64,000 nucleotides of DNA from a virus. Lineage: Duplodnaviria > Caudoviricetes. The DNA lies in the IMG/VR virus record IMGVR_UViG_2855933439_000001, positions 6,098 to 70,097 of that record. One strand, written 5' to 3'. This document shows positions 8,074 through 48,673 of this stretch, in pieces. Position numbers and translations under genes: made by a program. The stretch's first letter is position 1. The number at the start of each line of letters is the position of its first letter. The notes beneath the pieces are model-generated. The model saw nothing but the letters and a program-made list of their open reading frames with translations. It searched no databases and was not told the DNA's origin.

Positions 8074-8111
8074 GGGATCGCCCCAGACAAGGGCCGAGCG
8101 CGGCTTCGTCA

Positions 8112-8762: not shown

Positions 8763-8799
8763 TGGCGAGCTGATGGTCCAGCGTGCTGTGTATCAGAAG

Positions 8800-9683: not shown

Positions 9684-9699
9684 TGCCGCACGCCACAAT

Positions 9700-10821: not shown

Positions 10822-10822
10822 A

Positions 10823-10903: not shown

Positions 10904-10906
10904 GGT

Positions 10907-11448: not shown

Positions 11449-11571
11449 TGGACCGGCCTGCCGTCTTCCCGATCACGGTCTCCTCCCGCGGCCGTCCCGA
11501 AGTTCCTGCCGGCGCCGGTTCTGGGACCGGTAGGGGCGTGGCCCTCACGGGCGTTTCCTCCCAAGGTGACT

Positions 11572-11601
11572 GGCCGGAGCCCTCGCGGCTCCGGCCCTTT
11601 T
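11572..11601 (+). terminator. Intrinsic terminator (tR1-like)
   Basis: GGCCGGAGCC-CTCGC-GGCTCCGGCC-CTTTT, perfect 10-bp stem. Confidence 0.65.
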
Positions 11602-11743
11602 GGGATTTCCGTTCCTCGTGCGCGACCCATGCCCACCAAAGCCGGTCGCGCTCAACCACACATCACGCCGCCTCCTCTCTGGCGCCGCCCGCCATGGGCC
11701 GCCCTACCGTGGTGTTAACAACACACCACAGGAGGTTTCCGAG

Positions 11744-12223: not shown

Positions 12224-12356
12224 GCGATGACCCGTCGCCGCCTCAGCACCGGTCCTCCGGCCCCCATCATCCCGGCGGAGGACCCATCGTCGTCATCTAA
12301 CCCATAGGCCGCCAGAGCCGGATCACCGGCCGCCCGGCCACCGCGCCCACCCGTCC

Positions 12357-12752
12357 GTGGCGCGCATTTCAGGGGCCTCGATCATGGTACAACCGAGTGT
12401 GCGTCCGCGCGTGGCGGTTGCCGCGTCGCTCCTTCTGTGCGCCCCGCATCCCGGCTCGGACGGCGTGCTGGCCTACGTCGACCTCCTGCGCGACGAGGCC
12501 GCGTACTTGCTCCGCCGCTACGGCGTCGAACGCCGCGGCCTCAGCGACGAGGAGGCGGACGAGGCCGCGCGCCTCGCCGGTACCGCACAGGATCTCCTAA
12601 CCCTTGCCGACCTCTACCTGCACAGCGCCACCCCGTATCGGGATGACCCACGCACCGCCCGAGCGCCCTGCCACGCGCCGGCCCCGCTGCCCGGCCACCT
12701 CCTGGTGCGCCCCAGGGAGGGCGCCCCGACCGATCTCCAGGTGCGGGGGTGA
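12357..12752 (+). CDS. Hypothetical phage protein
   Basis: 131 aa, overlaps the next start. Confidence 0.5.
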   Translation: MARISGASIMVQPSVRPRVAVAASLLLCAPHPGSDGVLAYVDLLRDEAAYLLRRYGVERRGLSDEEADEAARLAGTAQDLLTLADLYLHSATPYRDDPRTARAPCHAPAPLPGHLLVRPREGAPTDLQVRG

Positions 12753-19395: not shown

Positions 19396-19980
19396 GTGCC
19401 AACCGACGTTGCCACACCTGAGGTGATGTGGCCGGCCGCCCGGATTGCCGAGCGCGACGGCGTCACCCGCGAGGCGGTGCTCAAGCTCGTGCGCGACCAC
19501 GCCGCCCAGCACGGGCTCGCGGTCGAGCGCGACGGGCGCGGCCGCATCGCGCTGATCAACGTCGTCCAGTACGACCACCTGCGGGGCCGCTACGCCGACC
19601 CCTCGAAGGCGCAGGCCTCGAAGGCCGCCGCGCCGCCCGCGCCGGCCCCGGCCGACAGCTACGACGAGGCCCTGCGCCAGCGCGCCTGGCACGACGTCGA
19701 GAAGCGGCGGCTCGAGGTCGGCGACCTGCGCAAGCAGCTCCTGCGGCGCGACCGCTACGAGGCGGCCGTCGCGCAGGCCGCCGCCGAGATGGCGCGGTAC
19801 ATCGATCAACTGCCCCAGGAGGCGGACGCGATCGGCCGGGCGCTCGGCCTGGAGAACGTCCACACCCTGCGGCTCGAACTCAAGAATGCGGCGGCCCGGA
19901 TGCGCGCGAAGATCGCGGGCGCGTTCCAGGCCATGGCCGCGGAGGCGCCGGCGACGGACGAGGAGGTGCCGGCGGAGTAG
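19396..19980 (+). CDS. Terminase small subunit (Nu1-like)
   Basis: N-terminal wHTH (AARIAERDGVTREAV), coiled coil, directly upstream of the large subunit. Confidence 0.8.
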   Translation: MPTDVATPEVMWPAARIAERDGVTREAVLKLVRDHAAQHGLAVERDGRGRIALINVVQYDHLRGRYADPSKAQASKAAAPPAPAPADSYDEALRQRAWHDVEKRRLEVGDLRKQLLRRDRYEAAVAQAAAEMARYIDQLPQEADAIGRALGLENVHTLRLELKNAAARMRAKIAGAFQAMAAEAPATDEEVPAE

Positions 19981-19985
19981 CGGGA

Positions 19986-22037
19986 ATGAGCGGCTTTTCC
20001 GGCGCGGCCAGACTGGTGACCGGCCGGATCGGCCAGGTCCTCGAGCCGCGCCCCCCGGTGGCCGTCTCGCAGTGGCTCGCCGACAACCTCGTCCTCATCG
20101 ACGGCCCGCTTGCCGGGCAGCGCTGGAACCCGGCTGGGGCGCCCTACCTCACTGAGATCGCCGACTGCCTCGGCGACGATCATCCCTGCAACCTCGTCAC
20201 GGTGCGCAAGAGCCAGCAGACCGGCGCCTCGATCCTGGCGCTCGGCTGGATGCTCTACATCGCCGACCAGGAGCCGGCGAACACGCTCTACGGCGTGCCC
20301 GGCATCGACTTTTTGCGCGACATCAACGGGCAGAAGCTCCAGCCCCTGATCGACGCGTGGCAGAAGCGTGCCGGCCGGGTCGTGATCGAGCCGCAGACCA
20401 GCCGCTCGGGCGCCGGCTCGACCACCTACGAGAAGAAATTCCCGGGCGGTTACGTCTCGCTCGGCAACGCCAACTCGGTCATGGACCTCTCGTCCAAGAC
20501 CACGAAGAAGGGCGTCAAGGACGAATTGTCGAAGTGGGCCGACATTCCGGGCTTCGGTGACCCCGAGACCCTGTTCTTCGGCCGGTTCACGGCGTTCCGG
20601 CGCACGAAAGACTACAAGATCCTGGAGATCTCGACGCCCGAGATCGACACCGGCGACGAGACGGGCGAGAAGCCCGGCCACTGCCGGATCGACCGGTCGT
20701 TCCGGCGCTCCGATCAGCGGTTCTGGAACCTGACCTGCCCGGGCTGCGGCAACCTCTTCGTCCATGACTTCGAGCGGCTGCGGATCGACGCCGCGCATCC
20801 CCACCGCACCCGCTACGAATGCCGGTGCGGGCACCACGTCACCGAGGCCGAGCGGGTCGAGGCGTTGCGGGACGGGCGCTGGATCCCCTCCGTCGAGGGC
20901 GAGGGGCGCCATCCGGGCTTTCACATCGACGCGTTCATCTCGCTCATGATGAGCTACGAGGCGATCGCCGAGGACTGGCTCAAGAACGCGAAGAAGGGCG
21001 ACAAGGGCGCCAAGGACTTCTCGAACCTGACCCTCGGGCTGCCCTACCGCCAGCGCGGCGACGCCCCCGACCACACCCGCCTGATGGAGCGGCGCGAGGA
21101 CGGGCTCACGCGCTTCCACGTGCCGGCGCAGGGCCTGCTCCTCGTGGCGAGCGCCGACGTGCAGATGCGCGGCATCTGGTACGAGGTCGTGGCCTTCGCA
21201 CCCGACGGTCAGAGCTGGACGGTCGACGCGGATTACATCCCGGGCGACCCCGCCGACTCGCGGAGCGAGGTCTACGGCCTCCTCCTCGACCGGACGCTCC
21301 GGCGCGAGTTCCCCGACGCGTTCGGGCGCACGCGGCGGGTCGACGTGCTCGGGATCGACACGGGCTACCTCTCGAACGCCGTCTACGGCTTCGTGCGGCT
21401 GAACCAATCGATCAACCTCAACACCGGGCACGACACGATCCTGGCGCTCGACGGCGTGCCGGGCTGGCAGAAGCCGCCGATCGGGCAGCGGCGCGAGGTC
21501 GAGGTCGACCTCGACGGACGCAAGATCAAGGGCGGCGTCCACATCTATCCGGTGGGGACCTGGGGCCTCAAGTCCTGGCTCTACAACGCGCTGCACAAGG
21601 CCGGCGTCCGCTCGGGCGAGCGGGTCGATCCGCCCGGCTACTGCCACTTCGGCATGTGGCTCGACGAGACGTACTTCAAGCAGCTCACGGGTGAGCGGCT
21701 CGAAGACGTGATCGTCAAGGGGCAGGTGACCACCCGAAAGTGGGCGAAGACCACCGACAACCACCTGCTCGACTGCCGGGTCTACAACCTGGCGCTCGCC
21801 GAATACCTTGGGCTCTCCTCGATGAGCCCGGACGAATGGGCCGCGCTCGCGCGGGCCCGCGGACTGCCGGACGAGCTCTCGCACGTCGACCTCTTCACGC
21901 CTGCGCGGAGGTTAGCGACGTCGCCCGAGGGCTCGTCCGGCGCACCCCTGGCGCCCGTGCCGGCGCCGCCCCCGCCCGAGCCTCCGGCGCCGCCCCCGGC
22001 ACCGAGCTGGTTCGACCGCCCGACCGACTGGTTCTGA
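19986..22037 (+). CDS. Terminase large subunit, lambda GpA family
   Basis: ATG 19986; VRKSQQTGAS, KDELSKW, ISTPE, CPGC/CRC zinc site, ADVQ, IDTGY, NHLLDCRVY. Confidence 0.95.
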   Translation: MSGFSGAARLVTGRIGQVLEPRPPVAVSQWLADNLVLIDGPLAGQRWNPAGAPYLTEIADCLGDDHPCNLVTVRKSQQTGASILALGWMLYIADQEPANTLYGVPGIDFLRDINGQKLQPLIDAWQKRAGRVVIEPQTSRSGAGSTTYEKKFPGGYVSLGNANSVMDLSSKTTKKGVKDELSKWADIPGFGDPETLFFGRFTAFRRTKDYKILEISTPEIDTGDETGEKPGHCRIDRSFRRSDQRFWNLTCPGCGNLFVHDFERLRIDAAHPHRTRYECRCGHHVTEAERVEALRDGRWIPSVEGEGRHPGFHIDAFISLMMSYEAIAEDWLKNAKKGDKGAKDFSNLTLGLPYRQRGDAPDHTRLMERREDGLTRFHVPAQGLLLVASADVQMRGIWYEVVAFAPDGQSWTVDADYIPGDPADSRSEVYGLLLDRTLRREFPDAFGRTRRVDVLGIDTGYLSNAVYGFVRLNQSINLNTGHDTILALDGVPGWQKPPIGQRREVEVDLDGRKIKGGVHIYPVGTWGLKSWLYNALHKAGVRSGERVDPPGYCHFGMWLDETYFKQLTGERLEDVIVKGQVTTRKWAKTTDNHLLDCRVYNLALAEYLGLSSMSPDEWAALARARGLPDELSHVDLFTPARRLATSPEGSSGAPLAPVPAPPPPEPPAPPPAPSWFDRPTDWF

Positions 22038-22253: not shown

Positions 22254-23777
22254 ATGTCGCTCGCCCTGAAGGCGCTGACCGCGCTCGCCTGGGTGGCGCC
22301 GCGGGCGGCCATGACGCGCGCCCACGCCCTCGGCCTCGTCGAGGGGACGCGCGGCTACGACGGCGCCAAGGTCGGCCGGCGGGCCGACACCTTCGCCGGC
22401 GGCGCGACCTCGGCTAACGTCGAGATCGGCACGGCGCTCGCGCGCCTGCGCAACCGCTCGCGGGACTTCGCCCGCAACACGGCGGCCGGCCAGCGCGTGC
22501 TCGACATCAAGACCGCGCACACGATCGGCACCGGCATCCTCGCGGTACCCGACAACGGATCGGACCGGATCGACAACCAGGTCCGGCAGGAATGGGACGA
22601 CTGGTGCGCCGTCTCCGACGTCGAGGGCGTGCTCGACTTCGCCGGCCAGCAGGTCACGGCCTACCGCACGACCTGCGAGGGCGGCGAGGCGGTCGTGCGC
22701 CGCGTCATCCGCCCGCTCTCCTCCGGGATGCGGGTTCCGCTGCAGCTCCACGTCCTCGAGGGCGACTGGATCGACACAGCCCGCGATCTCGGCCTGTTCG
22801 AGGGCCAGAACTCGCGCCTCGGCGTGGGTCTCGGCGACTACGATCGGCGTACGGGCTACTGGCTGCACGTACAGCATCCGGGCGACTTCAACTTCTACGG
22901 CTCGCCCTTCGTCTCGAAATTCGTCGAGGCTTCCGAGGTGATCCACCTCTACCGGCCCCTGCGGCCGGGCCAGGTGCGCGGCGTGCCGGTGTTCGCGCCC
23001 GTGCTGATGACGGCGCGCGATCTCGCCGACCTGATGGACGCGGTTCTGGTCAAGGCCAAGACCGAGGCGTGCTTTGCCGCCTTCGTCGAGACGAACGGCG
23101 AGCAGCAGAGCAACGTCGGCCAGGTCGTCAAGGAGGGCGGAGTCGCCCGGCGCCTGATCGAGAAACTCGCGCCTGGGATGATCAACTATCTCAACCCCGG
23201 CGAGAAGGTGAGCTTTGCCGCGCCTACCGGGTCGGGCCAGTTCGAGCCGGTCTGGCTCGCCGGCCAGATGGCGCTCGCGGCCGGCACCGGCATCACCTAC
23301 GACCAGCTCACGGGCGACCTCCGGCAGGCGAACTACTCTAGCCTGCGGGCCGGCAAGATCGAGAACCGGCGCCTGACCGAGCAGGAGCAGCACCTGATGC
23401 TGGTGCCGCAGCTCATGCGGCGCGTGACCGGTTGGTGGACCGATACTGCGATCGCCGCCGGGGCCCTGAAGCCCCGCAAGGACGGCTATCGCTGGAACTA
23501 CGTCATGCCGGCGGTCGAGCCGATCGACCCCAGGAAGGACCTCGAGGCCGACATCCTGGCGGTGCGCGCCGGCCGGATGACGCCCCAGACCTTCATCGGT
23601 TCATGGGGCGAAGACTGGCGCAAGGTCATCGCCGACACCAAGGCCTTCTTCGAGCTCGCCGACAAGGACGGCCTCGTCCTCGACATCGACCCGCGCCGCA
23701 CCTCGCAGCTCGGCGTCGCGCAGTCGCCTGGCGGCGAGGGCTACGCCACCGATCCGCCGAAGCCTGGCGCCGACTGA
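22254..23777 (+). CDS. Portal protein, lambda family
   Basis: GYDGA, LRNRSRD, RPGQVRGVP, TGDLRQANYSSLRAG, IDPRKD. Confidence 0.95.
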   Translation: MSLALKALTALAWVAPRAAMTRAHALGLVEGTRGYDGAKVGRRADTFAGGATSANVEIGTALARLRNRSRDFARNTAAGQRVLDIKTAHTIGTGILAVPDNGSDRIDNQVRQEWDDWCAVSDVEGVLDFAGQQVTAYRTTCEGGEAVVRRVIRPLSSGMRVPLQLHVLEGDWIDTARDLGLFEGQNSRLGVGLGDYDRRTGYWLHVQHPGDFNFYGSPFVSKFVEASEVIHLYRPLRPGQVRGVPVFAPVLMTARDLADLMDAVLVKAKTEACFAAFVETNGEQQSNVGQVVKEGGVARRLIEKLAPGMINYLNPGEKVSFAAPTGSGQFEPVWLAGQMALAAGTGITYDQLTGDLRQANYSSLRAGKIENRRLTEQEQHLMLVPQLMRRVTGWWTDTAIAAGALKPRKDGYRWNYVMPAVEPIDPRKDLEADILAVRAGRMTPQTFIGSWGEDWRKVIADTKAFFELADKDGLVLDIDPRRTSQLGVAQSPGGEGYATDPPKPGAD

Positions 23778-23804: not shown

Positions 23805-25871
23805 ATGAGCGGCATCCGTGCGGCGCTGACGCGCGCCGTCTCCAACGCGCTGACGCGCGCGGCCACGACGCCCCGCATGGGCCCCGACGGGTTCGAGCCT
23901 GGCTCGACCGTCACCCGCGCGGCGAGCTTCGTGCCCGGCACTTACGACGCGGCCGCCCGCACGATCGAGGCGGTGTTCTCGAGCGGCGCCCGGATCCGGC
24001 GCTGGGGCGCCTTCGAGGAGCTCGCGGTCGGACCGGAGGCGGTCGACCTCGGCCGCGCCATCGACGGCCGCATGGCGTTCCTGTTCAACCACGACCAGGC
24101 CCGGCCGATCGGCGTGGTCGAGGAGGCCCGCTTCGACGCGACCGGCCTCGCGGGGCGCTTGCGCTTCGCCGACACCGAGGACGGCCGCGCCTTCGAAGGC
24201 ATGGTCTCGCGCGGCGAGCTCTCGTCGATCTCGGTCGGCTACCGCGTCACCTCGTGGACGCTGACCAGCGTCGAGGACGACACCGAAATCTGGCGGGCGG
24301 ACAAGTGGGAGCTCCTCGAGGTCTCCCTCGTGACCGTCCCCGCCGATCCCCGGGCGGCCGTGCGCAGCACGCCCGCCGAACCCACCCCCACCCCCCGGGC
24401 GCAGGCCCAAACCGAGGAGAGCGACGTGCTTCGTCGTCATTCGCCGCAGGCGGGCCCGGCGCCCGTTGAGACCGTCGCTCCCGAGGCCCCCGAGACCCGC
24501 GCCGCCCCGGCCGCGGCTCCGGCACCCGCCCCCGTGCTGGCCGTCGACGGCCAAGCGCAGGTGCGCGCCGAGCGCGCCCGCGCTGCCGAGATCCGCGAGA
24601 TCGGCCGCCGCTCCGGGATGCCGCAGGCCGACATCGACGCCGCGCTCGACGGCGACACCGGCGCCGAGGCCTTCCGCATTCGCGCCTTCGACTTCATGGC
24701 CGCCCGCTCGGATGCCTCCATGACCCGCAGCGTGCCCCGTGCCCAGGTCACCGGCCCGTCCGAGGTCGAGCAGCGCGGCGCGGCGATCGAGAACGCGCTG
24801 ATGCACCGCTTCGACCCGAAGGGCGTGCAGCTCTCCGACCAGGGCCGGCTGTTCCGCGGCATGACGCTGCTCGAGATCGGCTCCGACCTGCTCGAGGGCG
24901 CCGGCGTGCGCACGCGCGGCATGTCCAAGCACGAGCGCGCCCAGGCGATGCTCGAGATGCGCTCAGGCGTGTCCGACATCGCGATCCGCTCGGGCGGCTC
25001 GCTCTCCACCTCGGACTTCCCCAACATCCTGGCGAATGTCGCCAACAAGACCCTGCGGATGGGCTACCAAGCCGCCCCGCAGACCTTCCGGCCGCTCGTG
25101 CGCGTGGTCACCGTGCCGGACTTCAAGCCGGTGAGCCGCGTCCAGCTCGGCGAGGCGCCCCAGCTCGAGAAGGTCAACGAGCACGGCGAGTTCAAGCGCG
25201 GCAAGATGGGCGACGCCGGCGAGAAGTACGCCGTCGCGACCTACGGCAAGATCGTCTCGATCACCCGTCAGGTCATCATCAACGACGACCTCGACGCCTT
25301 CACGCGCATCCCGCGCGCGTTCGGCGTGGCGGCGGCGAACCTCGAGAGCGACCTCGTCTGGGGCCAGATCACCGGCAATCCGGCGCTCGCCGACGGGTTC
25401 AACGTGTTCGACGGCACGAACCACAAGAACGTCGGCACCGGCGCGCCCACCATCGGGGCCGCCGGCGTCGGCGCGGCGCGCCAGATGATGCGGGTCCAGA
25501 CCGGCCTCGACGGCAAGACGCTGCTCAACGTCACCCCGACCTACCTCGTGGTGCCGACCGCCCTCGAGACGGTCGCCGAGCAGTTCCTGGGGCAGATCTA
25601 CCCGACGAAGTCTTCGGACGTCGTGACGGCGTCGATGAAGAAGCTTCAGGCAGTTTCCGAGCCCCGCCTCGACGTCGCCTCGGCCTCGACCTGGTATCTC
25701 GCCGGCTCGCCCGAGCAGATCGACATCATCGAGCTCGCCTACCTCGAGGGCCAGGAGGGGCTCTACACCGAGACCCGCATGGGCTTCGACGTCGACGGCG
25801 TCGAGGTGAAGGTCCGCCAGGACGTCGCCGCCAAGGTGATCGACTTCCGCGGCCTGTGGCGCTCGGCCTGA
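23805..25871 (+). CDS. HK97-type prohead protease fused to major capsid protein
   Basis: Protease LFNHD and ISVGY, WELLEVSLV; low-complexity linker; capsid STSDFPNILANVANK, TYGKIVSITRQVIINDDL. Confidence 0.9.
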   Translation: MSGIRAALTRAVSNALTRAATTPRMGPDGFEPGSTVTRAASFVPGTYDAAARTIEAVFSSGARIRRWGAFEELAVGPEAVDLGRAIDGRMAFLFNHDQARPIGVVEEARFDATGLAGRLRFADTEDGRAFEGMVSRGELSSISVGYRVTSWTLTSVEDDTEIWRADKWELLEVSLVTVPADPRAAVRSTPAEPTPTPRAQAQTEESDVLRRHSPQAGPAPVETVAPEAPETRAAPAAAPAPAPVLAVDGQAQVRAERARAAEIREIGRRSGMPQADIDAALDGDTGAEAFRIRAFDFMAARSDASMTRSVPRAQVTGPSEVEQRGAAIENALMHRFDPKGVQLSDQGRLFRGMTLLEIGSDLLEGAGVRTRGMSKHERAQAMLEMRSGVSDIAIRSGGSLSTSDFPNILANVANKTLRMGYQAAPQTFRPLVRVVTVPDFKPVSRVQLGEAPQLEKVNEHGEFKRGKMGDAGEKYAVATYGKIVSITRQVIINDDLDAFTRIPRAFGVAAANLESDLVWGQITGNPALADGFNVFDGTNHKNVGTGAPTIGAAGVGAARQMMRVQTGLDGKTLLNVTPTYLVVPTALETVAEQFLGQIYPTKSSDVVTASMKKLQAVSEPRLDVASASTWYLAGSPEQIDIIELAYLEGQEGLYTETRMGFDVDGVEVKVRQDVAAKVIDFRGLWRSA

Positions 25872-30195: not shown

Positions 30196-30314
30196 GCCAG
30201 GACGTCGCCGCGATCGGGCGGATGAGCCTGCCGCAGGTGATCTACTGGTACGGCCGGGCGCTCGCCCGGGCCGAGAAACGCCGCCGTGAGCGGGAGACGC
30301 GGGGGCAACGCTGA
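30123..30314 (+). CDS. -1 frameshift extension of the tail chaperone
   Basis: Slippery G GGT TTT TTC at 30123-30132; the -1 frame encodes ADLADDLAFELSQDVAAIGRMSLPQVIYWYGRAL and ends at the tape-measure start. Confidence 0.7.
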   Translation, partial: GFFPARRRGDRTVADLADDLAFELSQDVAAIGRMSLPQVIYWYGRALARAEKRRRERETRGQR

Positions 30315-32956
30315 TGGGCCGGATCATCGAAGCCAAGGCCGTCATCTCGGCCGAGGACCGCACCGGCGCCGTCTTCGACAAGATCGGGAAGAAGCTTCAG
30401 GGCCTCGGCAAGGGCGCGAAGGCTTCGGCCGAGATCGAGCGCCTCTCGGGCCGCCTCGGCGGCTTGCAGCGCCAGATGCAGGCCTTCGACAAGGTTCGCG
30501 GCGTCGAGAGCTCGCTCGCGAGCTCCCGCATGGCGATGCGCCAGGCTCAAGGGGAGGCGAAGCGCCTCGCGAGTGCCCTCGACAGCGCCCGGGCCTCGGC
30601 CAAGACCCTCAAGACCCCGGAGGCGACCGCCTCGGTCAAGCAGCTCGAGCGCCAACTGCGCGGCGCCGAGACCGCCGCCCGCGCGACCGAGGCCGCGTTC
30701 GCGCGCCAGGCAGCGAGCTTCAAGTCGGCGCGCCAGGAGATGAATTCCTTCGGCGTGCCCGTGACCTCGGCGGTCGGGCATCAGAAGGCCTTGCGCTCGG
30801 CGATCGAGTCGACCTCGGCCGCCCTCGACAAGCAGATGCGCATGGATCGCCTCGCCACCCGCGGCGCGGCCGACGCCAAGCGTACGCGCCTCGCGCGGCG
30901 CGACGAGGAGGTCGCCCGCCGGGCCGAGATCCTCGAGCGCCGCCAGGGCCGGCGCGACGCGATCAAGGGCGCGGCCGGCATGGCGGGCCTCGCCGCCGTG
31001 CACAAGGCCGAGCACTTCGGCGCCCACGCGCTGCACACCTACCAGGAGTTCGACAGCGAGCGCCGCTTCGGCCAGATCGTGATGGGCCTGTCGGACGCCG
31101 AGCAGAAGCCGCTCGTCGACCAGGCGATCCACATGGGCGGGAGCACGCGCTACAACGACGTGCAGGTGCTCGAGGCGCAGCGCGAGCTCGCCGCCCGCGG
31201 CTTGAAGCGCGACCAAGTCATGGGCCTGATGAGCCCGGCCGCCGACCTCGGCATGGCGACCGATCTGCGCCTGCCCGACGCCGTTAAGCAAATGGAGGGC
31301 GCGCTGTTCGGCTTCAAGAAGCCGATGGCGACGCTTCAGGAGGCGATGGAGTCGGCTCGCCAGACCGCCGACGCCCAGGTCAAGGCCGCCAAGATCTCGG
31401 GCATGACGCCCGATGACATCAGCCAGGCCTATAAGTACGGCGCGACCCCGGCCCGGATGGCGGGGCTGTCCGAGCAGACCTTGCTCGGCTTTGCCGGCAT
31501 CTCGAAAAAGGCGAACATGGGCGGCCAGGAGTCCGGCACCGCCTTCCGGGCACTCGTCGCCAACGCGCTCAAGCCGACCCGCGGCGCCAAAGAGGCGATG
31601 CTGGCGAACGGGCTCGATTACAAGAATTACCAGAAAAACCCGGACAAGATCGACCTCGACGCCTTCGTCAAGACTGTCGCGGCGCAGTACGGGGTCAAGC
31701 TCGACAAGGACACGCGCGGCGGTCTCGGCAAGATCTTTTCCGACAAGGGGATGATCGGCGACCCGTCGAAGTTCACGCCGGCCGTGATGAAACTCCTCTC
31801 CGATAACCTCGGCGGGGATGACGCCAAGTCGAAAAAGTCGATCGCCGGCCTCGCCAACCGCTTCCGTGACGCGTCCATGTGGGGCGTCGACACCGATCGC
31901 CTGGTGCAAGACCTGATGAAGGCGATCCCGGGCAACCCGGCGCTCGCCAACGCGATTTTCGGGTCGAAGCAGGGCGCCCGCATCGCCAACGCGCTCGGCG
32001 ATCCCGAGACGTTCAAGCACCTGATCGAGGAGCTCCTCAGCCACTCGCAGGGCTACGCGAAGACCGTCGCTGACGCCCGCATGGCCGGCTTCGACGGCGC
32101 GGTGAAGCGCTTGCAGGGCGCGACCACCAACGCCGAGACCAAGCTCGGTCGGGCGTGGGATGACGACGGCAAGGGCGGGATCCTGACGAGCCTCACCGAC
32201 AAGGCCGGCCACCTGGTGCAGAGCTTCGCCGAGCTCAGCAACGGGGCGGCTCAGCTCACCTCGGGCGTGCTCGGCGCGGCGTCGGTGTTCCTCGGGATCA
32301 AGAGCGCGGGCCTCACGGCCTCGGCGCTCGGCTTCGGCGGCCCGGCGGCGGCCGCCGCGGCGGGCCTGAGCACCGCGGGCGCCGGCGTCGCGATCGGCGC
32401 CGGCGTCGCGGCCTACAGCACGGCCGAGCAACTGCCCAAGGCGGTCGCCGAGCGCCGCGTCGACCCGGCGACAGGTGGCGCGCTCGACGAAAACCCCATG
32501 GCCGACCTCGGCCCCTGGATCAAGGAAACCTGGCGCTCCCTGTTCGGAGGCGGCCAGACCCTCCCGGTCGAGGTGAAATCCTGGGGCGACGCCAAGGGCA
32601 ACCTCGGCGAGCGCGGTGCGCTCGGCGCGGCGTCCGGCGCGGGCGCGGATCTCTCGGGCCAGTCGACGATCCTCGGCAACACGCTCGAAAAGGCGCTCGG
32701 GTCATTCGAGGCCAAGATGGGCAAGCCGCTCGAGGCGAACGTCAAGCCCGATCAGATCCAGGCCAACGTCAAGCCCGACCAGGTCACGGCGAAGATCGAG
32801 GGCCAAGCCCAGGTCAACGTGACCGTCAAGATCGACGGGCCCGGCGCCGTCTCGGGCCTCTCGGCGACCTCGTCGGGCAACATCCGCGCCAATGCCGGCT
32901 TCCGGTCCGGCGCGATGTCCATGCCGCAGGCGGCAGGCAACCCGGGTGGGATTTAG
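30314..32956 (+). CDS. Tape measure protein
   Basis: 880 aa, helical Ala-rich; STRYNDVQVLEAQRELAARG, ESGTAFRAL. Confidence 0.92.
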   Translation: MGRIIEAKAVISAEDRTGAVFDKIGKKLQGLGKGAKASAEIERLSGRLGGLQRQMQAFDKVRGVESSLASSRMAMRQAQGEAKRLASALDSARASAKTLKTPEATASVKQLERQLRGAETAARATEAAFARQAASFKSARQEMNSFGVPVTSAVGHQKALRSAIESTSAALDKQMRMDRLATRGAADAKRTRLARRDEEVARRAEILERRQGRRDAIKGAAGMAGLAAVHKAEHFGAHALHTYQEFDSERRFGQIVMGLSDAEQKPLVDQAIHMGGSTRYNDVQVLEAQRELAARGLKRDQVMGLMSPAADLGMATDLRLPDAVKQMEGALFGFKKPMATLQEAMESARQTADAQVKAAKISGMTPDDISQAYKYGATPARMAGLSEQTLLGFAGISKKANMGGQESGTAFRALVANALKPTRGAKEAMLANGLDYKNYQKNPDKIDLDAFVKTVAAQYGVKLDKDTRGGLGKIFSDKGMIGDPSKFTPAVMKLLSDNLGGDDAKSKKSIAGLANRFRDASMWGVDTDRLVQDLMKAIPGNPALANAIFGSKQGARIANALGDPETFKHLIEELLSHSQGYAKTVADARMAGFDGAVKRLQGATTNAETKLGRAWDDDGKGGILTSLTDKAGHLVQSFAELSNGAAQLTSGVLGAASVFLGIKSAGLTASALGFGGPAAAAAAGLSTAGAGVAIGAGVAAYSTAEQLPKAVAERRVDPATGGALDENPMADLGPWIKETWRSLFGGGQTLPVEVKSWGDAKGNLGERGALGAASGAGADLSGQSTILGNTLEKALGSFEAKMGKPLEANVKPDQIQANVKPDQVTAKIEGQAQVNVTVKIDGPGAVSGLSATSSGNIRANAGFRSGAMSMPQAAGNPGGI

Positions 32957-39074: not shown

Positions 39075-40019
39075 ATGCTCTACAATCCCCCGTCCGGCTC
39101 GATCGACCCGAACGCCCCGTACATCGGCAAGAACACGACCGCCGGCACGCAGGGTTCGAAGGTGCCGCGCGGCGCCGTCGAGTTCCCGCAGCGCGAGATC
39201 GTCAACGTCATCCTCGCCTCGGGCCAGGATCCGAGCAACGCCGACTTGCAGCAACTGCTCAAGGCGATCCGCTGGCTGATCCAGAACGCCTACAACGACC
39301 CGACCGTGCAGGCGGCCGTGATCAACCTGATCACGAACAACTATGCGCGGGGCTCCTACATCGGGCGCCAGATCTTCGCCAACCCCGGCACGGTCGCCTA
39401 CACGCCGACCCCGGGCACGAAGTCGGTGCGCGTGACGGTGCACGGCGGCGGCGCGGGCGGCGGCGGCGCCGACCCGACGAGCTCCGGGCAGTTTAGCGCG
39501 GGCGGCGGCGGCGGCGCTGGCGGCATCGCGATCAGCCGGATCACCAGCGGTTTTGCGGGCGCGCTGGTCACGGTCGGTGCGGCCGGCGCCGGCGGCGTCA
39601 ATCCGATCGGCATCGCGCCTTTCACCCGCGACGGCGGCAACGGCGGCGACTCGTCCTTCGGCGCCTTCCTGTCGGCCACGGGCGGCGGCGGCGCCCGCGG
39701 CGGCGCGGCCGGCACGTTCGTGAACGTCCAGGCCGGCGGCGGCGGCGGCGTCGGGATCGGCGGCAGCGAGCTCAACCTGCCGGGCGCCCCCGGCATGTAC
39801 TCCACCGCCTGCGACCCCGGCAACGCGGCGTCGGGCTTCGGCGGCATCTCGATCCTCTACGGCCGCGGCGGCAACCCGATCTATTCCGGCGGCGGCGCGG
39901 GCGAGGCCTCGCAGGCCTACGGCGCGGGCGGCTCGGGCGCGTCCAACGGGGCCAGCGCCCCGGCCCGCCAGGGCGGCGCCGGCCGAGGCGGCATCGTCCT
40001 GGTCGACGAGTTCGCCTGA
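39075..40019 (+). CDS. Tail fibre protein with glycine-rich domain
   Basis: N-terminal AVEFPQREIVNVILASG; HGGGAGGGG and many Gly runs. Confidence 0.8.
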   Translation: MLYNPPSGSIDPNAPYIGKNTTAGTQGSKVPRGAVEFPQREIVNVILASGQDPSNADLQQLLKAIRWLIQNAYNDPTVQAAVINLITNNYARGSYIGRQIFANPGTVAYTPTPGTKSVRVTVHGGGAGGGGADPTSSGQFSAGGGGGAGGIAISRITSGFAGALVTVGAAGAGGVNPIGIAPFTRDGGNGGDSSFGAFLSATGGGGARGGAAGTFVNVQAGGGGGVGIGGSELNLPGAPGMYSTACDPGNAASGFGGISILYGRGGNPIYSGGGAGEASQAYGAGGSGASNGASAPARQGGAGRGGIVLVDEFA

Positions 40020-42549: not shown

Positions 42550-44121
42550 ATGGCATTCCCGCTCATCAACATCGGGTCGGCCGCCAACGACGGCACCGGC
42601 GACGACCTGCGCACCGCGTTCGCCAAGGTCAACAGCTTCCTCGCGGCCTACGCGTCGCCCGACGGCCTCGCGACCGACATCGCCGCGGCGGCGAGCACGG
42701 CGCTCGACTCCGGCGTGACGCTCGCAAAGCGGATCAGCACCGGCACGGTTGCCCGGGCGCAGGTGCTCTCGGATTGGAACAGCAACCGTCCGCTGCATCT
42801 CAACGACGTGATCAAGCCCGGGACCTACGGCGAAAGCGACAATCTCTGGTCGTCAATCAATGAGCTCGCGAACCGGGCGCGCGAGCGCAACACCAGCTTT
42901 GAGCTCCCGGCCGGCAAGTTCCTCTGTAATGGCGAGGTCGACCTCCAATTTACCGAGGTCGTCGGTGCGGGGTCGGGCATTTACGACACGACGACCGTTC
43001 ATCGGCAGAACGCCGGAGATATGTTCGTCTCTCTCGGACACGTCGCCCGCCTGCGCCGGCTTCGCCTTCGTCACGAGGGCGTGTCGGGCAAGGCTCTGGC
43101 CCTCCGGAATGGCGACGCGCATCGGATCGACGACGTCGGCATTGACGGGTTGCACCCGGCGGCGACCGACAGTCTCATGACGTTCTTTGGGTCCAATTGT
43201 CGGTTCGACAATCTTTCCATTTCCAGCCTTCGGGCGGCTTCGTCTTATTGTCTCGAGTGCCTGAGCAGTGAAACGTCGGGTAATATCAACATCAACAATG
43301 TGATTTCCGGCCTCTACATGGGCGGGACGAGCAGCGGTGTGCATGTCGGGTCGTCCGACGGCAGTCGCCGCCCGGAGGGCCTGCACTTCATCGCGCCTCA
43401 ATCAGTGATCGTCGGCGGCCCGGCATTTACGGTCGGGGCAATCCTGCAACTGGTCATCGTCGCGCCGATGCTCGACCAGGTGAAGGGCTACGGCATCCTG
43501 ATCAAGACCGAAGCGCCCTACGGCGTGTCATGCGTGCAGGTCATCGGCGGATGGATCGGCTCCTCGTCGGTGACGGACCCGAACGCGGTCGGCATCGGGA
43601 TCGACAACGGCTCTCCGATCGCCAGCGCCAACGTCGGCGGCGTCGTCGTCACCGGCGGCACGGGCCTGCGCTACCTGAAAACCGGCATCGATGTCATCGG
43701 CCAGACGCAAGACCTCACCGTCGACGATAGCGTGCAGTTCTCCGACCTTGCCTCGGGCATCTGCATCGATGCGCCAGACCTCAACTGGATCAAGACGCAA
43801 CTGACCGTCGGAAGTCGGATCAAGGTGCCGGCTGGGGCCCAATTGATCCGCAACAAAGCCACGGGCAGGGGCGGGCTTAAGAAGTCGCGCAAGACGTTCT
43901 CGATCCCGACGAGCGGTTTCAGCGGCTATGTCGGAGGCGATCACGGCCTGGTCGCCCCGCCTGCGACTTTGACGGTCGGGTTCGACGTCGGGACGGCGAC
44001 AATGCAGCCGCCCGGAATACAGATGGCGACAAAGGATCTCAACAATGTCGTTCTGAATGCTCAGATAAACGGCATTGTCGCTCACGGAACCGGCACTGTA
44101 ACCGTCGACATGGAAGTCTGA
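42550..44121 (+). CDS. Tailspike-like protein with parallel beta-helix (pectate-lyase-like fold)
   Basis: N-terminal INIGSAANDGTGDDLRTAFAKVN; LPAGKFL..VVGAGSG entry motif; repetitive beta strands; lower GC in the body. Confidence 0.75.
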   Translation: MAFPLINIGSAANDGTGDDLRTAFAKVNSFLAAYASPDGLATDIAAAASTALDSGVTLAKRISTGTVARAQVLSDWNSNRPLHLNDVIKPGTYGESDNLWSSINELANRARERNTSFELPAGKFLCNGEVDLQFTEVVGAGSGIYDTTTVHRQNAGDMFVSLGHVARLRRLRLRHEGVSGKALALRNGDAHRIDDVGIDGLHPAATDSLMTFFGSNCRFDNLSISSLRAASSYCLECLSSETSGNININNVISGLYMGGTSSGVHVGSSDGSRRPEGLHFIAPQSVIVGGPAFTVGAILQLVIVAPMLDQVKGYGILIKTEAPYGVSCVQVIGGWIGSSSVTDPNAVGIGIDNGSPIASANVGGVVVTGGTGLRYLKTGIDVIGQTQDLTVDDSVQFSDLASGICIDAPDLNWIKTQLTVGSRIKVPAGAQLIRNKATGRGGLKKSRKTFSIPTSGFSGYVGGDHGLVAPPATLTVGFDVGTATMQPPGIQMATKDLNNVVLNAQINGIVAHGTGTVTVDMEV

Positions 44122-44129
44122 GGCCAACC

Positions 44130-44636
44130 ATGACTTACGCCATCATCAGCCAGGACCGCGTCGTGGGGCTGGCTCCGACGGAGCCGGACCTCCCGCGCAG
44201 CATCGAAGTGCAGGACGTCTCCGGCGTGCTGGGGATCGAAATCGGGTGGTCTCGGCAGGATGGGGCGTGGGTCGCTCCGGAGCTGCCCGCGGCCGACTTG
44301 GTTGCGCGGGCAGGCGCCCGGCGGCAGCGGGCCGAGAATGCCGGCGTGGCGTTCGCCGCTGCGGGCGGATCGCGCTGGCACTCCGATCGCGCGAGCGTCG
44401 CCCGCATGATGGCGGATCGGATCTCGGCGCTGACGGACGCCACCAGGACGGCGCTCTGGCACGACGCGGACGGCGCATCGCGTGCGCTCTCAGCCCGCGA
44501 CGTGATGGCCGTTACGGACGCCATCAACGCCCATCTGCGCGCCTGCGCCGACGCCTACAAGGCCGCCGTGGACGGGATCGAGGCTGGCGCAATCAAGACC
44601 AGTGCGGGCATCGCCGCGGTCTCCTGGCCGGCCTGA
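44130..44636 (+). CDS. DUF4376-like tail fibre assembly protein, copy 2
   Basis: GIEIGWSRQDGAWVAP, ARRQRAENAGV, WHDADG. Confidence 0.75.
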   Translation: MTYAIISQDRVVGLAPTEPDLPRSIEVQDVSGVLGIEIGWSRQDGAWVAPELPAADLVARAGARRQRAENAGVAFAAAGGSRWHSDRASVARMMADRISALTDATRTALWHDADGASRALSARDVMAVTDAINAHLRACADAYKAAVDGIEAGAIKTSAGIAAVSWPA

Positions 44637-44721: not shown

Positions 44722-44746
44722 GCCGCCCCTCCCGGGCGGCTTTTTT
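44722..44746 (+). terminator. Intrinsic terminator (copy 1 of duplicated terminator-RBS element)
   Basis: GCCGCCC-CTCCC-GGGCGGC-TTTTTT. Confidence 0.8.
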
Positions 44747-44766
44747 GTGCCCGGAGCTCTCCCCTC

Positions 44767-45033
44767 ATGGCCACCGCCTCTTACGCCCCGACCGCCGACG
44801 ACTGGACGGATGCCGGGACCACCCCGTGCTACGTCCAGGTGCTCAACACCGCGTGCGTGGCGTTCGTGATCGACACGAGCGCGCCCGCGAGCTCGGTGCC
44901 GGCCACTGCCGGGCATCAGCTCGGCGTGACCGGCGAGACCTCGGCCGACATCGGGCTTGCCGGTCAGCGCCTCTACCTGCGCTCGCTCTCGCTGCCGGCG
45001 AACCTCGTCCCTGACGTGCGCGTGTCGAGGTAA
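44767..45033 (+). CDS. Small beta-rich hypothetical protein
   Basis: 88 aa, GGAG RBS, immediately upstream of the GH5 gene. Confidence 0.65.
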   Translation: MATASYAPTADDWTDAGTTPCYVQVLNTACVAFVIDTSAPASSVPATAGHQLGVTGETSADIGLAGQRLYLRSLSLPANLVPDVRVSR

Positions 45034-45037
45034 TCCC

Positions 45038-47593
45038 ATGACGATCCGGATCGGCCGCGCGAGCGGCGGCGGCGGCTTCACGGTCACGCGCGATGCGACC
45101 TCGGGCCAGTACAGCGCGACCGGGCTCAAGGCCGGATCCGCGGCCGCCCTGTTCGACATCACGGCTGGCGGCGCGGCCGTCGAGACCGTCACGGTGAGCG
45201 GCGGCGGCGTTGCGACCTTCACCACCTCCCCCACCAGCGGCCACACCTACGTGGTGGACGGGGTGCAGCGGATCCCGGCCGGCGTGGCCGGCGGCGTGTC
45301 GGCGCCGGCGCCTTTCAGCTTCGGCCCGTGGATCGGCGTCAACGCGTCGGGCTTGGAGAACGGCAACCGATACGAGGCCAGCCTGGGCCTTAACAATGTC
45401 GAGGGTACGCATTTCTTCGTCCCCACGATGAATGCCATCAATCAGTGCAACAACGCTGGCGTGAAGCATTACCGGGTGCCGTTCCTGCTCGAGCGGCTCT
45501 ATCGCTCGCTCGGGGCCACCAGCCTCGACGCGGGTTACTACGCCAACCTCGTCACCACGGCCGACCGCATCCACTCGGTGGGCGGGAAAATCTCGTGGGA
45601 CTGCCACGCTTACGGCGAGGGCTGGTTCAACGGCGTCAAATACAACATCTCCTCGACGGGGGCCTACAACAAGACGCATCTGCTCGCGCTCTGGCGCATG
45701 TTCCTTCAAGGCCCGCTCGGCACGCATCCGGCGACGGAGGCGATCGACCTCAATAACGAGTGGCAGGCGCTCGCCAACCCGGCGGATCTGCCCGTCATTC
45801 AGCAGTACATCATCGATCAGCTTCGCGCGGACGGCAGCGAAATCCCGATCATTTACGAAGGTGATCAGTACAGCAACGGCGAGCACTTCTGGACGATCAA
45901 TTCCGTGGGCTTCCCCATGGTCGATCTGAAGAACAAGGCGCGTCCTTCGGGCCATATCTATATGGATCCCGACAGCGACGGCAACGTCACCTCGCACCCC
46001 ACCTGGGCGTCGTGCAAGGCCGGCGGCAGCACGGATGACACCCCGCTCAACCGCATCAAGAGCTTCGTCGATAACGCCCCGGCTGGCCTACAGCTCAACA
46101 TGGGCGAGACCACCATCTATTCGGATGGTCTGGAAGCGTTTTACAGGGCGCTCAAGTATCTCATCGATCACGGTCACTCGGGTTATATCTGGAACATCGG
46201 CGAGCAGTCCGGCCCCATCGAGTCCAACCTGTTCTCCTACAACGGCGTCGAGCGGCCTCAGTGGGAGGTGATCCGCGAATTCACCGGCGTTCCGCTCCGC
46301 ACGCTCACTCTGCGCGCGCCTCACGGTGCGGATGCCGGCGCCGCGGCCACCCTCAAGATCCGGGCCTCGGGCTACACCGCGACCGCGTTCCCCGTCACGC
46401 TGAGCGACGGCGGCGCCGGCGGCACGTTCTCGGTCAACCCGGTCACCGTGCCGGTCGGCTTCGGCAGCGAAGTGACCGTGACCTACACGCAGCCGGGCAC
46501 CAAGGTCGTCAACCTGTCGCTGACCAACGCGGTCGGGCGCACGAACCCGGCGGCGTTCGCCTTCAGCACGGATCCCGCCAACCGCATCAACCTCCTCACG
46601 TCGGCGCCGACGACGTGGACGGATGTCAACCACGCCACCTTCGACGGGGCGACCGGGACGCTCACCGAGGACGGCAACAACGACTACCACTACCAGCGCC
46701 TGCCGGTCGTGTCGGTCGCCTCGGGCGCCGTCGAGTTGTGGATCGACTTCGCGAACACAAGCACCCGCAGGACGGGCGTCCTCGTGTTCGGCGATACGTT
46801 CGGGTTCTCGCGTTTCGGCCAGATCAATTTCGACCTGGACGCAGGCACGATCACCGCGACCAGCGGGGCCGGGCTCATCTCGTCTTCTATCGCCCCGATT
46901 GCGGGCGGTCAGAGACTCAAGATGTTCCTCGACCCGGGCCCCCTCACGGAGGTCTCTCTGGAAGTCTACTTGCAGAGCGGGAACTCCTATCAAGGCTCCG
47001 GGCAGTTCCTGCGTTACGATCCGAGCAGCGTGAAGATCTACCAGCCGGCCTCGATCGGCACGCCAGGGGTGACCTTCCCCGATCCCGCCGCGGTGTCCTC
47101 ATCGATCGGGGGCACGCACAGCACGACCTACGGCTTCGAAAACCTCACGGACGTGACCGACGCCGACGGCGGGTCGTTCGCCAAGCGGTTCCCGCTCTCG
47201 GCGGATCAGAACTTCCACGGCGGCGCTTCCTCCGCGACGTTCGTGGTCAACCAGAAATACACTCACGAGATGTCGGTGCACAGCGTGAGCAACACCGGCT
47301 TTCTGATCTTGGACAGCTACGACGGCTCGGTTGACCACAGCGTGATATACGATCTCGCCAATCACACAATCGTCGCCTCGGCTGGCATTGTCACTGGCAC
47401 CCCGAAGGTCACGGCTCGCGACCACGGGTTCTACAAGGTCGAGTTCGATTTCATTGCCGCGGGAAGCGGAGGCACTGGCTACGAACGCCAGTGGTACGTG
47501 GAGCCGGTGCAGCGGGCGGCGTCCGACTGGCAGGGCCCGTCCCAAAGCATCGTCCTCGACTGCTACCAGGCGCAGATCAAGCCCGCGACGTAA
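45038..47593 (+). CDS. GH5 glycoside hydrolase (endoglucanase-like) with C-terminal Ig-like and tandem CBM-like domains (851 aa)
   Basis: ATG 45038; GVNASGLE, HYRVPFLLERL, DCHAY, NNE (acid/base, 45758-60), GHIYMDPD, MGET (nucleophile, 46106-08), YIWN. Confidence 0.85.
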   Translation: MTIRIGRASGGGGFTVTRDATSGQYSATGLKAGSAAALFDITAGGAAVETVTVSGGGVATFTTSPTSGHTYVVDGVQRIPAGVAGGVSAPAPFSFGPWIGVNASGLENGNRYEASLGLNNVEGTHFFVPTMNAINQCNNAGVKHYRVPFLLERLYRSLGATSLDAGYYANLVTTADRIHSVGGKISWDCHAYGEGWFNGVKYNISSTGAYNKTHLLALWRMFLQGPLGTHPATEAIDLNNEWQALANPADLPVIQQYIIDQLRADGSEIPIIYEGDQYSNGEHFWTINSVGFPMVDLKNKARPSGHIYMDPDSDGNVTSHPTWASCKAGGSTDDTPLNRIKSFVDNAPAGLQLNMGETTIYSDGLEAFYRALKYLIDHGHSGYIWNIGEQSGPIESNLFSYNGVERPQWEVIREFTGVPLRTLTLRAPHGADAGAAATLKIRASGYTATAFPVTLSDGGAGGTFSVNPVTVPVGFGSEVTVTYTQPGTKVVNLSLTNAVGRTNPAAFAFSTDPANRINLLTSAPTTWTDVNHATFDGATGTLTEDGNNDYHYQRLPVVSVASGAVELWIDFANTSTRRTGVLVFGDTFGFSRFGQINFDLDAGTITATSGAGLISSSIAPIAGGQRLKMFLDPGPLTEVSLEVYLQSGNSYQGSGQFLRYDPSSVKIYQPASIGTPGVTFPDPAAVSSSIGGTHSTTYGFENLTDVTDADGGSFAKRFPLSADQNFHGGASSATFVVNQKYTHEMSVHSVSNTGFLILDSYDGSVDHSVIYDLANHTIVASAGIVTGTPKVTARDHGFYKVEFDFIAAGSGGTGYERQWYVEPVQRAASDWQGPSQSIVLDCYQAQIKPAT

Positions 47594-47652: not shown

Positions 47653-47678
47653 AAGCCGCCCCTCCGGGCGGCTTTTTT
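47653..47678 (+). terminator. Intrinsic terminator (copy 2 of duplicated element)
   Basis: AAGCCGCCC-CTCC-GGGCGGCTT-TTTT. Confidence 0.8.
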
Positions 47679-47697
47679 GTTGCCCGGAGATCTCCGC

Positions 47698-47913
47698 ATG
47701 ACCCCGCAGCTCCTGCTCGTCGCCCTCGTCTGCGCCGTCGGCACCCCGCGCGTCGACTGCATGCGCGCGACCGCCCTCGACGTGATCGTGCAGCCGGCCG
47801 CGTCCGCGATCCCGACCGCGTGCCTCCTCGAGGGCGAGGCGCGCCTCGCGTCCGGCGCGCTCGAGCTCGCGCCCGGCACCTACCCGCTTTTTCGCTGCGA
47901 GCGCCGCCGCTGA
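47698..47913 (+). CDS. Small exported or membrane-anchored Cys-containing protein (71 aa)
   Basis: Hydrophobic N-terminus LLLVALVC; four Cys. Confidence 0.6.
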   Translation: MTPQLLLVALVCAVGTPRVDCMRATALDVIVQPAASAIPTACLLEGEARLASGALELAPGTYPLFRCERRR

Positions 47914-47932: not shown

Positions 47933-48673
47933 GTGCTGACCATGATGAATCCCCCCGAGGCGGCCGCGCTCGCGCGCCTCACTGCCGCCGGCTTCAAGGG
48001 CCGGGCCGCCCGCCTCTCCGACCTCGACCTGCCGCGCCTCGGCGCGACGATCGGCGTCGGCGAGGACGAGATCCATAGCGTGATCGAGGTCGAGACCTCC
48101 GGCGGCGGTTTCGATAAGGCGGGCCGGCCCAAGGCGCTCTATGAGCCGCACCGCGCCTTCGCGCTCTCGAGCGGGCCCACGCGCGCGGCGCTGGTGCGTG
48201 CCGGCCTCGCCTATGCGAGTTGGGGCGCAGAGCCTTACCCGGACGACAGCTATCCCCGGATCCTGGCCGCCCTGGCGATCGACGCGCGCGTCGCGCTCGA
48301 GGCGACGAGCTGGGGCCTCGGGCAGATCATGGGGAGCAATCACGCCGAGGCCGGCTACGCGAGCGCCGCCGAAATGGTGGCGGCCTTCCTCGACGGCGAG
48401 GAGCCGCACCTCGCCGCCATGGTGAGTTTCATCAAGGCGACCCATCTCGACGACGAATTGCGCGCCCACAACTGGGCTGCATTTGCCCGCGGCTACAATG
48501 GCGCGCAGTATTCCAAGAATAAATACGACGTGAAGCTGAAGGCGGCTTTTGCCAAGTGGCAGAAGATCCCCGACACGCCGTATCCGCCCGCGCCGGCCGC
48601 GCCGTCGGCCGCCCCGGCCGTGGCCGCGGTCCCGGGCCGCTGCCCGACCTGCGGCAAGGCGCTCGCCGCCTGA
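47933..48673 (+). CDS. Endolysin, N-acetylmuramidase (DUF3380 family)
   Basis: VIEVETSGGGF, LYEPH, SWGLGQIMGSN, FARGYNG, YDVKL. Confidence 0.92.
   Translation: MLTMMNPPEAAALARLTAAGFKGRAARLSDLDLPRLGATIGVGEDEIHSVIEVETSGGGFDKAGRPKALYEPHRAFALSSGPTRAALVRAGLAYASWGAEPYPDDSYPRILAALAIDARVALEATSWGLGQIMGSNHAEAGYASAAEMVAAFLDGEEPHLAAMVSFIKATHLDDELRAHNWAAFARGYNGAQYSKNKYDVKLKAAFAKWQKIPDTPYPPAPAAPSAAPAVAAVPGRCPTCGKALAA

Follow-up and report, generated by a model that had tools for sequence, protein, structure and literature searches.

The window analysed in this study is a stretch of 64,000 nucleotides of viral DNA (Duplodnaviria; Caudoviricetes), corresponding to positions 6,098 to 70,097 of the IMG/VR record IMGVR_UViG_2855933439_000001. 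Its portion from 19 to 49 kb is a Mu-like, myovirus-type prophage, and near the end of this portion, between tail and lysis genes, lies a gene for an 851-residue multidomain protein, named P0001 here, that contains a domain of glycoside hydrolase family 5 (GH5). P0001 is proposed to be a glucan depolymerase that is made late, is associated with the phage particle and acts outside the cell; this reading is given a probability of roughly 55%. That the protein is a late phage depolymerase acting on host extracellular glucan, with the particle-borne and the lysis-released forms taken jointly, is considered quite probable. The gene and its parts are as follows.

45038..47593, plus strand: GH5 multidomain gene P0001, 851 amino acids (open reading frame (ORF) calling; Pfam, PDB and exhaustive HMMER searches)
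45038..45322, plus strand: N-terminal module, residues 1-95 (common to proteins with other payloads)
45326..46291, plus strand: GH5 catalytic domain, residues 97-418, with E241 as predicted acid/base and E357 as predicted nucleophile (Pfam, PDB matches, alignments)
46307..46546, plus strand: Ig/PKD-like domain, residues 424-503 (weak PKD match; block with the motif SDGGAGGTFS, aligned in alignment A2 and in the protein of metagenomic contig L067)
46598..47122, plus strand: C-terminal beta-sandwich domain 1, residues 521-695, Rcc01080-like family (hidden Markov model (HMM) and profile matches)
47123..47593, plus strand: C-terminal beta-sandwich domain 2, residues 696-851, and the stop codon (HMM and profile matches)

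Sequence comparison indicates that P0001 carries a genuine, yet divergent, GH5 domain with an intact catalytic set. The protein matched PF00150 with an E-value of 3.6e-6 and 27.1 bits (cut-off 23.5 bits), over residues 126-389 and profile positions 21-270 of 272; in a GH5 family search of its own genome, where it is present in a single copy, it scored 30.4 bits. A phmmer search against the PDB returned 22 distinct chains at E<=1, every one named endoglucanase, cellulase or EGI, the best of them being 1gzj (2.8e-13). The original prediction, made from the letters alone, had stated that all eight residues usually conserved in GH5 could be placed, and each was found at the motif it named: R146 in YRVP (145-148), H190 in DCHAY (188-192), N240 and E241 in NNEW (239-242), H306 and Y308 in GHIY (305-308), E357 in GET (356-358) and W385 in IWN (384-386). 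In alignment A1, which has 51 rows including 5 that share the N-terminal module with P0001 and have no GH5 domain, the same residue was present in 48 rows at N240, in 47 at R146, E241 and Y308, in 46 at H190, H306 and E357, and in 44 at W385. All eight were invariant in the nine rows of alignment A2.

The motif layout had also been likened to that of subfamily GH5_5 enzymes such as Ralstonia Egl, which we take to be a member of that subfamily. This likeness held when the A2 family profile was compared with the PDB: the best matches were RBcel1 (4ee9, E 3.7e-76) and Pseudomonas stutzeri Cel5A, or Ps_Cel5A (4lx4, 6.7e-74), the nearest characterised enzymes, both of which are GH5_5. Xanthomonas-type and fungal endoglucanases came next, the fungal ones presumably being GH5_5 as well. 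The GH5 domain of P0001 is 25-30% identical to each relative compared, namely the phage-type proteins P0007, P0004 and that of L067, the cellular enzymes of exopolysaccharide (EPS) clusters and the GH5 proteins of the host.

The divergence of the domain raises the question of whether it still works as a glucanase. An exhaustive HMMER search of 1.84 billion representative sequences found 181 proteins at E<=1e-3 and two at E<=1e-30, one of which was the query, and the best relative was 32% identical. Such sparse kinship, together with a score of 27.1 bits to Pfam, would suit a receptor-binding protein that keeps the GH5 fold mainly for binding, or an enzyme acting on a non-glucan substrate; GH5 also takes in mannanases, xylanases and others. 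However, none of the eight conserved residues, the two catalytic glutamates among them, has been lost, and all 22 PDB matches carry endoglucanase or cellulase names. This alternative is regarded as improbable, and a glucanase remains the preferred assignment.

The reading frame is open over 44957..47593 (plus strand) if a TTG start is used, as in the ORF listing, whereas the ATG at 45038 gives the protein of 851 residues. The ATG is favoured over the TTG because GAGG lies 7 nt upstream of it, within the end of the preceding ORF of 88 amino acids (ORF88), and because the metagenomic protein P0007, which begins MTIR, aligns from residue 2. The G+C content at third codon positions (GC3) is 0.876 in frame, and it is uneven along the gene: the N-terminal module (0.947) and the Ig domain (0.942) resemble most of the structural genes measured, which had values of 0.93-0.96 (0.84 in the terminase), whereas the catalytic domain (0.84) and the two C-terminal domains (0.885 and 0.854) are lower. 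The mosaic GC3 suggests that P0001 was assembled from parts differing in age or origin. No signal peptide was found, in line with the original prediction: there is no hydrophobic N-terminal stretch, and the highest 15-residue Kyte-Doolittle mean in the first 60 windows was 1.35. Lacking a signal peptide, P0001 would meet an extracellular substrate only if carried by a particle or set free by lysis.

The region behind the catalytic domain may link P0001 to virion fibres. The Ig-like segment foreseen after the GH5 domain gave a weak PKD match (E 5e-4; 20.5 bits, under the cut-off of 23.5), and its block is conserved beside the GH5 domain in relatives (A2 and L067). The original prediction further proposed two related domains at the C-terminus. 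Compared directly by BLASTP, the two were weakly similar (E 0.078, 12/36 identities around the two motifs pointed out in that prediction), but a domain HMM built without P0001, from P0004, P0005 (two copies), P0006, P0013, P0002 and P0007, matched both copies, at 682-850 with 13.2 bits and at 497-688 with 11.8 bits, whereas the best of 500 shuffles scored 8.9 bits. When a domain-only profile (A5) was compared with the PDB, it matched the head-spike fibre Rcc01080 of the Rhodobacter capsulatus gene transfer agent (RcGTA) (6tb9_F3, E 3.3e-11, chain residues 93-242) and also the tail fibre gp17 (E 0.006); the A2 profile likewise reached Rcc01080 (E 2.8e-9). Structural resources gave leads only: the ESM Atlas look-alikes of residues 525-851 were viral hypothetical proteins (score 0.93) and a CBM_4_9 cluster (0.90), and the structural look-alikes were viral and Laminin_G_3 clusters with TM scores of 0.45-0.56. 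The ESM Atlas model of P0001 had a pTM of 0.60, and the comparison covered the C-terminal part.

At the other end of the protein, the N-terminal module has 42-56% identity with the N-terminal parts of P0003, P0042, P0075, P0089 and the 87-residue P0141. The downstream parts of these proteins differ, carrying SGNH-like motifs (GDS...HP) or an FN3 domain. The module was found joined to SGNH-like parts in two IMG/VR contigs, L019 and L020, inside structural gene blocks. Both contigs are podovirus-like, and their proteins with the module and an SGNH-like esterase part (L019, about 1202-3280; L020, 4893-6731) lie between portal and major head genes. Judged by these sequence matches, the module is likely an attachment or adaptor part that other phage enzymes also carry; it may represent a general means of fixing different enzymes to phage particles.

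Relatives of P0001 are few. A word-indexed search found two besides the query, and P0001 alone had no close relative among genome contigs or viral contigs. It matched 1/50,697 phage records at E<=1e-5, 10/300 other genomes of the family (each match either no more than about 30% identical or weak in E-value) and 0/10 other genomes of the same genus. Among the relatives that were found, several stand in tail modules. In the metagenomic phage contig L067, a GH5+Ig+FN3 protein comes after a tail assembly protein, a 1256-residue J-like protein and tail fibre proteins; it has at least 814 residues and no signal peptide, and is 29% identical to P0001 over 435 residues (E 1e-24). In L061, a second metagenomic phage contig, a GH5-Ig-beta-sandwich protein comes directly after fibre-like ORFs; identity to P0001 is about 30% in these two relatives. 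The G+C-rich IMG/VR contig L021 has, at 7316-12508, a fibre-like ORF of 1730 residues with short Ser/Thr/Gly/Ala repeats and a GH5 domain in its middle. P0004, used as query, matched 5/50,697 phage records at E<=1e-3; two were from Stutzerimonas stutzeri phages and bore the annotation 'cellulase family glycosylhydrolase'. A viral GH5 protein has been cloned and found active on carboxymethylcellulose (CMC), as described in a rumen virome study (PMC10465536). What favours a particle-associated depolymerase is that the putative binding domains are of fibre type, that other proteins share the N-terminal module and that relatives stand in tail modules.

The surroundings of the gene bear on whether the enzyme stays on the particle. 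The features concerned are listed below; the genes, from the terminase to the endolysin, are all on the same strand.

19428-22037: terminase
22254-23777: portal
23805-25871: protease-capsid fusion
30314-32956: tape measure
39075-40019: Gly-rich tail fibre, followed by a DUF4376 protein
42550..44636, plus strand: 523-residue protein with a fibre-connector-like N-terminus, then a second DUF4376 protein (tail-fibre PHROG)
44722..44762, plus strand: copy 1 of a duplicated element in which a G+C-rich hairpin precedes a T-run and GGAG; the start codon (ATG) of ORF88 follows (direct repeat; terminator-like site at 44722-44740)
44767..45033, plus strand: ORF88, an orphan of 88 residues whose last codons hold the Shine-Dalgarno sequence of the GH5 gene
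47653..47695, plus strand: copy 2 of the terminator-plus-GGAG element, then the ATG of a small ORF
47698..47913, plus strand: ORF of 71 residues with a hydrophobic N-terminus, just before the endolysin
47933..48673, plus strand: endolysin (N-acetylmuramidase; PF11860, E 5e-45; phrog_1224)

The prophage also encodes baseplate hub, wedge, J and Mu gp48-like proteins and a 452-residue tail protein upstream of P0001. With baseplate and tail-fibre genes upstream and the PF11860 endolysin downstream, the proposed location in a prophage between tail and lysis genes was confirmed. ORF88 ends 4 nt before the GH5 start codon, has a GC3 of 0.91, and gave no PHROG or Pfam family, no homologue and no PDB match. 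In the 523-residue protein (42550-44121), an N-terminus of 33-50 residues resembling tail-fibre connectors is the only recognisable part, and its GC3 (0.81) is the lowest of the genes measured; it was probably swapped in as a second receptor-binding or depolymerase protein. The 71-residue ORF begins MTPQLLLVALVCAVG... and matches no Pfam family; it could be a candidate holin, a spanin-type lipoprotein or an exclusion protein.

The 41-nt element is present twice, each time with a start codon 8-10 nt after GGAG, and its copies bracket ORF88 and the GH5 gene. Their hairpins are the two strongest of four terminator-like sites on the plus strand between 38000 and 50500. A scan of the same interval for one promoter type found no sigma-70-like site, and there is no promoter-sized gap between either terminator and the start codon that follows it. 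Expression of P0001 by read-through along with the late tail and lysis genes is most likely.

This arrangement keeps alive a soluble enzyme that would be made late, off the particle, and freed by lysis, degrading the surrounding matrix so that progeny can disperse. The soluble form remains in contention because the terminators bracket the cassette, setting it apart, and because no recognisable anchor domain was found; P0001 also adjoins the lysis genes and has no signal peptide. Intermediate cases exist too, such as the loosely attached, detachable, biofilm-degrading RcGTA spike described in a preprint (bioRxiv 10.64898/2026.07.19.739414). However, the family of the C-terminal domains matches a virion fibre, relatives lie directly after tail-fibre genes or within a fibre-like ORF, and an N-terminal module found on enzymes with different payloads resembles an adaptor. 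A purely soluble enzyme is possible, but is considered clearly less likely than a particle-associated one.

The same brackets are moron-like, and could mark a lysogenic-conversion gene through which the host would gain a glucanase, either to trim its own cellulose or EPS or to attack the glucans of plant walls. The lower GC3 of the catalytic and C-terminal parts (0.84-0.885, against 0.93-0.96 in structural genes) would agree with such an origin, as would the cellular relatives, which are glycanases of EPS clusters. These single-domain relatives sit in polysaccharide clusters: the one in G172 has a Tat-type leader and adjoins flippase-like and phosphomannomutase-like genes, and the one in a Lichenihabitans metagenome-assembled genome is placed among genes for GT2, an epimerase, a Wzx-type flippase, Glf and a GGDEF-EAL protein. 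In contrast to the G172 enzyme, P0001 lacks a signal peptide; it has viral-type fibre domains; no sigma-70-like promoter site was found, nor is there space for a promoter after the terminator; and the host already holds six other GH5 genes and a GH8 gene. A gene serving the lysogen is considered very unlikely. For action on plant wall glucans, which the original prediction gave as an alternative, nothing was found in support, and a plant-wall auxiliary metabolic gene was rejected on account of the missing secretion signal and the fibre-type domains.

For the preferred reading, a particle-associated depolymerase, the host genome offers two candidate substrates. When it was searched for cellulose synthesis (bcs) genes, bcsA, bcsB and a GH8 gene were found. 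BcsA scored 804.5 bits against a cut-off of 699.1 and is about 50% identical to the products of annotated rhizobial bcsA genes, and bcsB adjoins the BcsZ-like GH8 gene on one contig; the cellulose synthase set is spread over two short contigs, C301 and C267. Four of the six other host GH5 genes lie on contig C96, in an EPS cluster (L148/L149, 1-26208) that also encodes a GDP-mannose 4,6-dehydratase, an epimerase, GT1, a Wza-like exporter, ManC and a priming sugar transferase. An EPS cluster with as many as four glycanases is unusual. From sequence, the substrate of P0001 is probably a beta-1,4-glucan, with cellulose as the first candidate and the C96 EPS as the second.

Taken together, the C-terminal beta-sandwich domains would bind a host surface polysaccharide, and the N-terminal module of about 95 residues would anchor or adapt the enzyme. 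In host cellulose or another GH5-susceptible EPS, the GH5 domain would then cleave beta-1,4-glucosidic bonds, E241 acting as acid/base and E357 as nucleophile of a retaining mechanism. Cleavage may open the way to the cell surface at adsorption, or free progeny from the matrix after lysis. The virion-borne or lysis-released cellulase of the original prediction is thus the best supported reading, by context, by the relatives in tail modules, by the fibre-type domains and by the precedent of Erwinia phage S6; we infer rather than observe the activity, the substrate, the late read-through expression and the presence on the particle.

Several results weigh against a particle-borne glucanase. No known virion-attachment domain was recognised, and neither Pfam nor the PDB gave a match to the N-terminal module; a search of 100 further genomes from the genus did not detect the module, and the docking-type N-terminus of the neighbouring 523-residue protein is absent from P0001. 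The enzymes that share the module in L019 and L020 sit between portal and capsid genes, away from the tail genes. P0001 fits the domain HMM weakly (13.2 and 11.8 bits), and its C-terminal region alone, compared with the PDB, gave chance-level antibody matches and no Rcc01080 at E<=10. A profile from five whole proteins without P0001 (A3) had no Rcc01080 match at E<=0.05; the link to this fibre depends on the composition of the alignment, because A2 and A5 reach it and A3 does not. Concerning the substrate, the closest cellular relatives are in EPS clusters rather than bcs operons, and the GH5 domain is no more than 25-30% identical to any relative compared, the GH5 proteins of the host EPS cluster included. 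Finally, two strong intrinsic terminators bracket ORF88 and the GH5 gene in a moron-like manner, and read-through is assumed.

The structural block of the prophage has known kin. Its terminase is nearest to those of Microcystis phage yong2 (61%), Rhizobium phage PPF1 (53%) and Aurantimonas phage AmM-1 (41%). These phage relatives, and those of the host BcsA, suggest a host among Hyphomicrobiales-type alphaproteobacteria. A megablast of positions 1-9000 of the window against plasmids gave no match. Homologues of the endolysin (36-63% identity) occur in 11/100 other genomes of the genus. Six of those endolysin regions contained at most matches to J, gp48 and the fibre N-terminus (27-35%) and two short matches to the 452-residue protein; ORF88, P0001 and the 71-residue ORF had no match in these six regions.

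ORF88 and the GH5 gene may also be viewed, by analogy, as a self-contained 'enzymatic spike' module like the two-gene head-spike unit of RcGTA, in which a small base protein holds one flexible fibre. On the capsid or at another vertex, ORF88 would build a small base with symmetry; attached there through the N-terminal module, the GH5 protein would hang as a flexible fibre able to cut polysaccharide as well as to bind it, the binding falling to the Rcc01080-like domains. If this were true, P0001 would be a glycanase-armed decoration fibre and not a baseplate tailspike, which would explain why enzymes with the N-terminal module lie between portal and capsid genes in L019 and L020. Such a spike is speculative and held to be doubtful.

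P0001 matters for several reasons. It shows that temperate myoviruses have taken up a second GH5 lineage, GH5_5-like, unrelated to that already known from phages, and near to glycanases found in the EPS and cellulose systems of bacteria. The architecture differs too, combining a swappable N-terminal module, a catalytic domain, an Ig domain and two predicted binding domains that are related to a fibre of a gene transfer agent. If active, P0001 would provide a defined tool and marker for phage adsorption that depends on cellulose or EPS, in a host group of bacteria in which such matrices matter for colonising surfaces.

Among known enzymes, the best solved matches of the P0001 family profile are RBcel1 and Ps_Cel5A. 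P0001 alone matched 4lx4 at 2.4e-12 and 4ee9 at 3.7e-7, which is far below the match of the family profile. The acid/base, tyrosine and nucleophile columns are the same as in the P0001 family; however, RBcel1 and Ps_Cel5A are single-domain cellular enzymes, whereas P0001 is phage-borne and multidomain. Both are described as GH5_5 endo-1,4-beta-glucanases in PMC8900817, where the key residues of RBcel1 are given as E135, Y201 and E245, and a BcsZ-like role in cellulose production is proposed for Ps_Cel5A.

Rcc01080 (GhsB) is the closest solved counterpart of the C-terminal domains. It is reported as a particle-borne fibre that attaches RcGTA to the capsule and binds capsular polysaccharide (PMC7296036; PMC10218006), and it has the motifs ED..NN.H, FDL..GT and Y.G.G in common with the C-terminal family of P0001. 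Unlike P0001, it has no enzyme domain. According to PMC7296036, it is fixed to a pentameric base protein via an N-terminal Ile/Leu-Gly repeat, which has no clear counterpart in the N-terminus of P0001 (MTIRIGRASGGGGF). A gene for such a base protein would be expected next to the fibre gene, whereas ORF88, the neighbour of P0001, resembles no solved chain.

In the backbone, the nearest system for comparison is Rhizobium phage vB_RleM_PPF1, which has a related terminase (53% identical). The slot of P0001, after the baseplate/tail genes and directly before the endolysin, is filled there by PPF1_32, an SGNH/GDSL hydrolase. PPF1_32 is an esterase and P0001 a glycosidase; they are not similar in sequence, nor do they have the N-terminal module in common. 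The tail region of PPF1 (L035, 21008-24651) contains two esterase-type genes, for a sialate O-acetylesterase and for the SGNH/GDSL hydrolase.

The novelty implied by the original prediction was overstated, as a CMC-active phage GH5 protein, gp095 of Erwinia phage vB_EamP-S6, is already in print (PMC9544554); phage GH5 cellulases directed against host cellulose are a recent discovery made with this phage. The same report gives host cellulose as the first receptor, needed for infection. In titles and abstracts of the literature joining prophage, GH5 and tail, no case like P0001 was evident. Like P0001, gp095 is a phage-encoded multidomain GH5 protein with Ig-like domains. The gene order in S6 is gp095 (PF00150, E 5e-44), gp094, gp093, holin and endolysin; gp095 adjoins virion structural genes and lies close upstream of the holin and endolysin, as P0001 precedes the endolysin. 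However, gp095 and the GH5 domain of P0001 had no detectable pairwise similarity (BLASTP E 2.5), and therefore belong to different GH5 lineages. The GH5 domain of gp095 is C-terminal, after the Ig-like domains, whereas the order in P0001 is N-terminal module, GH5, Ig and two beta-sandwiches. S6 is a lytic N4-like podovirus of a gammaproteobacterium, and the phage of P0001 is a Mu-like myovirus prophage. In sum, the phage GH5 enzyme is a kind already known, and P0001, encoded by a temperate myovirus, belongs to a distinct GH5 lineage and has a new architecture.

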